From a virus (Duplodnaviria > Caudoviricetes): a DNA stretch of 64,000 nt. Below, one piece after another: positions 23,981 to 24,204 of this stretch; position 1 is the first letter of the stretch; every line of letters starts with the position of its first letter. Made by a program: the position numbers and the translations under genes. The stretch covers positions 32,001 to 96,000 of IMG/VR virus record IMGVR_UViG_3300033070_001349; one strand, given 5' to 3'. The notes under the pieces were generated by a model. The model was not told where the DNA came from, ran no database searches, and saw only the letters and a program-made list of their open reading frames with translations.

Positions 23981-24204
23981 GTGAGCGGCTCGATCGGTGA
24001 GCCCTTCGCGAACACCTCAAACGGACCCCCCGGACCATCCTCCGGGAGCGAAGGGCGAGGTGACGACGATCTAGCCCGCGACGCAGGCGAGGAGCTTGCG
24101 GAAGCAACCCGAGGAGGGGAGCGCGTCGGGCACTACGAGGGCGGACTGGGCCCCCGAAAAGGATCGAGGCAGCGCGCGAAGGATTCACCGATCGAGCCGC
24201 TCCA
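23981..24204 (+). ncRNA. ~220-nt structured RNA closed by a long terminal stem
   Basis: 23983-24000 perfectly complementary to 24185-24202, extendable to 28 bp; begins at predicted TSS. Confidence 0.7.

Follow-up and report, generated by a model that had tools for sequence, protein, structure and literature searches.

Positions 23981-24204 of the window (the 64,000-nt stretch of DNA analysed here, bases 32001-96000 of the 148,482-bp IMG/VR record IMGVR_UViG_3300033070_001349; Duplodnaviria; Caudoviricetes) may encode a discrete, stable small RNA with sealed ends and a role of its own, the 5' member of a two-RNA transcription unit. We give this reading an even chance of being right. The element directly follows a sigma-70-type promoter, its ends are complementary over 28 nt, it lacks a coding signal, it lies next to a tRNA-Leu-like gene and it occurs once in the phage genome. 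An RNA with sealed ends is the best-supported explanation, and the support comes from the statistics of the closing helix, the placement between promoter and tRNA-like gene, the palindrome at the end of the unit, the autonomous fold, the non-coding character, the repetition of the design in the next unit and the location in an island of tRNA genes. The earlier note had proposed a discrete non-coding RNA with its own promoter and closed ends, and this model fits all of the features computed.

The record is about 78% complete, has a GC content of 71% and derives from a large uncultured phage whose convincing genes are all on the + strand. Its RecA-like protein reaches at best 33% identity to proteins of GenBank phages and 43% within IMG/VR, where this query found no close phage relatives, and the phage represents an orphan lineage without cultured relatives. 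Within the RNA island lies a 104-aa gene (24721-25035) encoding a small protein with relatives of 43-67% identity, the closest known being P0002 (67%, on a Logan contig). Its informative relatives come only from metagenomes and four Polyangiales (Myxococcota) MAGs, which hints at Polyangiales as the host clade. Members of this family are found at loci L009-L031 and L037-L040, and in L016 and L017 the gene is again located just downstream of tRNA genes.

A repeat search identified the arms of the closing helix P1 (Table 1) as a 28-nt inverted repeat, 93% complementary, with 164 nt between the arms. When G-U pairs are counted 27 of the 28 positions are paired, and one G-U and one mismatch are present whichever strand is read, which confirms the 18-bp perfect helix extending to 28 bp that had been described earlier. 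Among perfect inverted repeats with arms within 400 nt, this core is the longest of the whole 148-kb record; in genomes simulated from a first-order Markov model the longest perfect repeat was 13-18 bp, and 18 bp was reached by one of 20. Over 28 positions with G-U allowed, the score of 27 is the unique maximum of the genome and the only site of at least 26, compared with maxima of 24-26 in six Markov-simulated genomes. P1 is therefore real and beyond chance. The + strand RNA 23975-24210 folds at -121 kcal/mol (z -5.15), and the element is predicted to remain an autonomous module when all 346 nt of the unit are folded together. A good fold is likewise predicted for the minus strand (z -4.12). 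As the helix is equally good there, the assignment to the + strand follows from the promoter, from the tRNA-like genes and from the fact that promoters and genes uniformly point in the + direction.

The promoter is the highest-scoring site between 23400 and 25600, a region in which shuffled sequences average 0.1 sites, and the suggestion that the element begins right after a near-consensus promoter was thus borne out. It belongs, as a variant, to a family with about 27 near-identical copies on the + strand (TTGACn-N9-10-(C)TATGCGCTAGATT) spread over record positions 600 to 89,000 (window -31397 to 56956), for example at window positions 1377, 2387, 6198, 12205, 21038, 23721, 31496 and 40141; only two similar sites are found on the minus strand of the record. 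The three promoters of the RNA island carry ATAGNNT in place of GCGCTAGATT. Many promoters of the family have an ATG or GTG 7-8 nt past the -10 element, and this spacing implies that many of the corresponding mRNAs would be leaderless. From the same spacing the start site of the element is predicted two bases ahead of the helix. At the other end, the helix stops 5 nt ahead of the tRNA-Leu-like gene.

The RNA had been proposed to end in CTCCA just ahead of a tRNA-Leu, and this agrees with the sequence at 24200-24204 and with an ARAGORN call of tRNA-Leu(CAG) starting at 24208. The called gene is an atypical one. Its T and anticodon arms are canonical, the acceptor stem comprises 6 bp and a mismatch, and an ACCA end is encoded; the D arm is aberrant, and the long variable arm that bacterial tRNA-Leu has is missing. 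ARAGORN is its sole caller, and the Rfam tRNA model gave no match to it even at E<=10 in a 341-nt search. A CAG anticodon reads CUG, which is expected to be the commonest leucine codon in a high-GC host; if so, the phage would be expected to have little need of its own tRNA-Leu(CAG). ARAGORN made three tRNA calls in the 148-kb record, all of them inside the RNA island, and only the tRNA-Arg(CCU) passes the gathering score of the Rfam tRNA model. The upstream RNA would terminate in CCA, in the manner of a tRNA acceptor. We place little weight on this likeness, which may be coincidental, given that the neighbouring 95-nt RNA does not share it.

The unit ends in a palindrome that is predicted to fold as a hairpin and is one of 15-19 genome copies of GGAGYCAYRTGRCTCC. 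Others lie, for example, at window positions 10404, 30784, 38936 and 53655, and several copies are directly upstream of promoters. The unit contains no intrinsic terminator with a U-tract, the palindrome itself being without one, and the repeated 16-nt sequence could be a phage-specific terminator, a processing hairpin or a protein or methylase site. A second unit of like design and unrelated sequence follows, with a promoter at 24331, a 95-nt RNA closed by a 20-nt inverted repeat, and the tRNA-Arg(CCU). Pairing between the 220-nt RNA and this C-rich 95-nt neighbour was considered and discarded, the duplex energy being at the level of shuffled sequences (P = 0.42).

Table 1. Features of the promoter, the predicted RNA and the adjoining tRNA-like gene (window coordinates).
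Feature	Position	Strand	Remarks
Sigma-70-type promoter TTGACT-16 nt-TAGAAT	23946-23973	+	Score 10/12; predicted start ~23980-23981
P1, 5' arm	23983-24010	+	Outer 18 bp perfect; pairing probability ~1.0 throughout the helix
Alternative 9-bp pairing S1 (24001-09 with 24048-56)	24001-24056	+	Competes with the inner 8 bp of P1
Interior domain, 164 nt	24011-24174	+	Purine-rich; predicted branched fold
Candidate helix P2 (CACCUC 24013-18 / GAGGUG 24057-62)	24013-24062	+	Nested in P1; probability 0.25, iso-energetic with the MFE
7-bp hairpin CGCAGGC/GCUUGCG, loop GAGGA	24082-24100	+	Probability 0.98-1.0; overrides the GNRA candidate 24096-24107
Small hairpin CCC-GAGGA-GGG, second GAGGA loop	24108-24118	+	Probability 0.45
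P1, 3' arm	24175-24202	+	With the helix read from 23985, RNA would end GAGCCGC-U-CCA (CCA = 24202-24204)
Spacer ACC between RNA and tRNA-like gene	24205-24207	+	RNase P cut predicted after 24207, in keeping with the known action of this enzyme
Atypical tRNA-Leu(CAG)-like gene	24208-24284	+	ARAGORN call and fold
Palindrome GGAGTCATATGACTCC ending the transcription unit	24308-24323	+	7 nt ahead of the next promoter (24331)

Uridine makes up only about 10% of the whole RNA, and the stability of the interior is at the level of shuffled sequences (z -0.80 on the + strand, +0.21 on the minus strand); P1 therefore carries the entire statistical signal. The candidate helix P2 encloses a hairpin (24029-34/24041-46, loop CCAUCC) with a probability of 0.92. 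Both of the complementarities on which an H-type pseudoknot had been proposed, S1 and P2, are present in the sequence, but the pseudoknot itself did not hold up. S1 costs 5.3 kcal/mol in the full RNA, cannot coexist with the inner eight pairs of P1 and has an ensemble probability of 0, although it is a stable hairpin in isolation, and P2 is simply nested in P1. On geometric reasoning, loops of 3, 29 and 0 nt cannot span helices of 9 and 6 bp. In 6.4% of composition-matched shuffles, moreover, the interior finds a perfect 9-nt complement in one or other arm of the stem. During transcription S1 would form first and then be displaced, which would be ordinary folding and gives no evidence of a switch. 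The GNRA hairpin TTGC-GGAA-GCAA (24096-24107) suggested previously has a probability of 0.001, because its 5' half sits in a 7-bp helix with a probability of about 1.

The view that no convincing coding sequence lies here was upheld. The two open frames of the element have a GC3 of 0.69-0.70, compared with 0.86-1.00 (median 0.95) in 33 genes of the window, and a GC3 frame plot shows no coding signal between 23950 and 24720. The frame starting from the GTG at 23981 is spaced as in the leaderless starts of this phage and extends without a stop to 24319, across the tRNA-like gene. Neither a Pfam match nor a homologue was obtained for it, and it is not a called protein in a collection of 5.8 billion proteins; a leaderless gene from this GTG was ruled out because its GC3 is 0.69, it lacks homologues and it would overlap the tRNA-like gene. 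Two short direct-repeat matches to the coding sequence 25293-25547 are mutually out of register and were taken as chance.

Searches for relatives of the element covered RNA families, phage genomes, metagenomes and genomes of the candidate host clade. No Rfam 15 family reached its gathering score on the element, and at E<=10 the only match was a meaningless 18.7-bit hit to an archaeal H/ACA RNA on the minus strand. The 6S model (RF00013) gave no match at its gathering score or at E<=10 in searches of 1.8 kb and 341 nt, and Y_RNA, YrlA and Deinococcus_Y_RNA (RF00019, RF02553, RF01053) gave none over 23981-24204 at E<=10; weak YrlA and Deinococcus Y RNA matches fall on the tRNA-Arg (24451-24571), off the element. 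Neither ARAGORN nor the Rfam tRNA model detected a tRNA-like module inside 24011-24174. The earlier note had pointed to 6S, Y RNA and phage motifs in Rfam, and none of these families matched the element. The element produced no blastn match in 50,697 GenBank phages, and the exact 19-mer of its stem is absent from IMG/VR. Three of four flanking proteins have no relatives in IMG/VR, and the fourth, the 104-aa protein, has one relative (52% identity) at a locus with neither a tRNA nor the element. A profile of the 104-aa family recovered 23 loci from JGI metagenomes and the four Polyangiales MAGs from GTDB genomes. Within the loci of this family no homologue of the element was found by blastn, nhmmer or a single-sequence covariance model (R1), nor did R1 find one in 151 further Polyangiales genomes. 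R1 matched only two unrelated long hairpins. One is a rod-like hairpin of about 50 bp (L012:4540-4676, z -8.0) on a metagenome contig that also carries a homologue of the 104-aa gene, and the other, in contig 13 of Polyangiales MAG G002 (L041:1490-1650, z -9.2), is a perfect 34-bp inverted repeat around ~89 nt, MITE-like in appearance and unrelated in sequence to the phage element. At a further locus of the 104-aa family (L016) a tRNA-Gln (855-929) lies between imperfect inverted repeat arms of 21 nt (799-819 / 938-958). This region (797-958) has a weak full-length YrlA match of 28 bits over model positions 1-114, well under the gathering score, and the stem enclosing a tRNA gives it a Y-RNA-like layout.

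The record was also searched for genes that could act on, or with, such an RNA. The 148-kb sequence contains no TROVE/Ro gene, no RNase III or dsRNA-binding domain, no CCA-adding enzyme, no resolvase/invertase, integrase or tyrosine recombinase, and no reverse transcriptase (RVT_1), so that the RT expected beside a retron msr-msd is missing. CsrA was found in neither the record nor the four candidate-host MAGs, and control genomes were positive. In each of the four Polyangiales MAGs (G002-G005) a single ORF, 543-656 aa long, matches part of the TROVE domain (24-36 bits over model positions 276-357), and these ORFs possibly encode Ro/Rsr-like proteins of the candidate host clade.

In the mechanism that we infer, transcription would proceed from the promoter at 23946 through the 220-nt RNA and the tRNA-Leu-like gene to the palindrome at 24308, with the host RNA polymerase starting at about 23981. 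The first and last 28 nt of the upstream RNA would zip into a helix of 2.5 turns, sealing both ends from exonucleases; stable RNAs typically have a terminal helix that links their 5' and 3' ends. A cut by RNase P between 24207 and 24208 would free the tRNA-like RNA and at the same time set the 3' end of the upstream RNA, and exonucleases would shorten this end as far as the helix, and possibly to the CCA that is encoded there. The predicted helix, at 28 bp with 18 perfect, also exceeds the ~20 bp that make an RNase III substrate, and cleavage there would leave the interior on a shortened stem. The product would be a stable, end-protected small RNA of ~190-225 nt made from the start of infection, and its purine-rich interior with two GAGGA loops may then meet a partner in trans, most likely a host protein that is titrated.

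Several observations weigh against a sealed RNA with its own role. An interior at shuffle level is no less suited to a spacer than to a functional domain, the minus strand forms a helix of equal quality, and a 78%-complete phage record encodes no candidate partner (Ro, CsrA, dsRBD or RNase III). The element is also a single orphan sequence, without a homologue in the collections searched. The element could be a purely cis-acting leader (a 5' external transcribed spacer). Its stem would then do no more than assist the processing or stability of the tRNA-like gene behind it, perhaps by admitting RNase III, by shielding the 5' end or by acting as an insulator, and the excised piece would be degraded without a function of its own. 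This is possible, although we consider it unlikely. The unremarkable interior and the lack of a partner protein in the phage are what such a leader would predict, and the fact that the next unit, unrelated in sequence, again has a promoter, a leader closed by a stem and a tRNA points to a generic structural role. However, the leaders of bacterial tRNAs are as a rule short, RNase P works without a stem of this kind, an interior of 164 nt is a costly spacer in a densely packed phage genome, and a dedicated strong promoter would serve just ~345 nt. An origin at the DNA level, as a MITE or transposon scar, an invertible segment or paired protein-binding sites, is improbable. Inverted repeats of 28 bp around 164 bp do resemble MITEs and invertons, the quality of the stem on both strands would be expected of a DNA element, and a candidate-host MAG carries an unrelated element of similar size with 34-bp perfect inverted repeats. 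Nevertheless, the element is single copy in the phage and absent from 4 + 151 Polyangiales genomes and from GenBank phages, its flanks (CGT / CAA) show no target-site duplication, and the scar of a MITE, which had been named earlier as a possible objection to an RNA, is thereby disfavoured. The phage record has no resolvase/invertase or tyrosine recombinase, an inverton would be expected to hold a promoter-like site and none is present inside the segment, and the element lies exactly between a start site and a tRNA-like gene.

The remaining explanations assign the RNA a particular partner. A trans-acting early decoy is quite improbable as a specific proposal; it would combine the 26-28-bp duplex, an acceptor-like N-CCA tail and a purine-rich display domain to titrate a host protein. 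Candidate targets would recognise tRNA ends or double-stranded RNA, such as a tRNA-directed defence nuclease, RNase III or a Ro-type quality-control factor. We attach the same low credence to the accompanying idea that the RNA acts within a whole island of tRNA mimics, in an orphan lineage with its nearest protein relatives in Polyangiales MAGs. The functions offered in the earlier note, a 6S-like decoy of RNA polymerase, a Y-RNA-like partner of Ro or a conformational switch, are very improbable. It is true that 6S and Y RNAs share the pairing of 5' and 3' ends in a long stem and are of similar size, that all four candidate-host MAGs have a partial TROVE-domain match, and that an alternative 9-bp pairing exists which would form first during transcription. 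Against these, the element has no covariance-model match to either RNA. 6S RNA is a rod with a large central bubble that mimics an open promoter, whereas the phage RNA is predicted to be an uninterrupted helix carrying a multi-branched interior, and the tRNA-like module within the stem and the phage Ro gene that a Y RNA would call for are lacking. A switch fails on the energy of the alternative helix, on its frequency in shuffled sequences and on the steric implausibility of the proposed pseudoknot. A sponge for a CsrA/RsmA-type protein, displaying GGA motifs, is scarcely credible. The GGA count of the element, 10 in 227 nt, is in the top 1.5% of windows (genome mean 4.5), and two of the motifs are in the predicted GAGGA hairpin loops; the count, however, matches the dinucleotide composition of the element itself (P = 0.37) and the cognate protein was found neither in the phage record nor in the four candidate-host MAGs.

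Known systems offer partial parallels to the discrete RNA that we favour. The small RNAs RNAC and RNAD of phage T4 (species 1 and 2 stable RNAs) have gone unexplained for decades. They lie in the T4 tRNA region and their roles are still unknown (PMC3014915, PMC9697503), they have been classed as late (PMC9697503), and literature searches on T4 'species 1 RNA' and on non-coding RNAs of phage tRNA clusters turned up little beyond these two papers. The element resembles them in being a putative small non-coding RNA among phage tRNA genes and co-oriented with them, those of T4 being co-transcribed with the tRNAs, and it would belong with them as a functional class and not as a homology family. It differs in its greater length (~220 nt), in a promoter of its own directly upstream, in the 28-bp terminal helix and in lacking sequence similarity to any GenBank phage, T4 included. 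Whereas the T4 RNAs are late, the promoter of the element looks like the general sigma-70-type class of its phage.

Long-range stems with RNase III sites bracket 16S and 23S rRNA. The stems of rRNA operons and of phage T7 early transcripts likewise place a helix of >20 bp around an RNA product adjoining a tRNA released by RNase P, but the phage element has no rRNA-like product and the phage encodes no RNase III. In MALAT1-mascRNA and in the spacer RNAs of tRNA transcripts, the 3' end of an upstream non-coding RNA is formed by RNase P cutting at an adjacent tRNA-like structure. MALAT1 is from another domain of life and serves as an analogy only, with no homology; its ends are protected by a triple helix, where those of the phage RNA would be protected by a terminal duplex.

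If the RNA accumulates, it would add a new and unrelated case to the handful of phage small RNAs that are produced together with tRNAs. The clean layout of promoter, sealed RNA, tRNA-like gene and palindrome would make an easy construct for studying maturation and binding. The present evidence makes it a lead and not yet a discovery, and the terminal helix alone is statistically outstanding.

Two other features of the window were recorded during the analysis. A 17-bp perfect inverted repeat with a 39-nt loop (33752-33824) lies upstream of a C5 DNA methylase gene (34539-35726) and adjoins the sole lower-GC stretch of the window (34001-36000, GC 0.64). Further downstream, an 870-aa helicase-like gene (ResIII, 54340-56952) is split by an intein with a LAGLIDADG homing-endonuclease domain.
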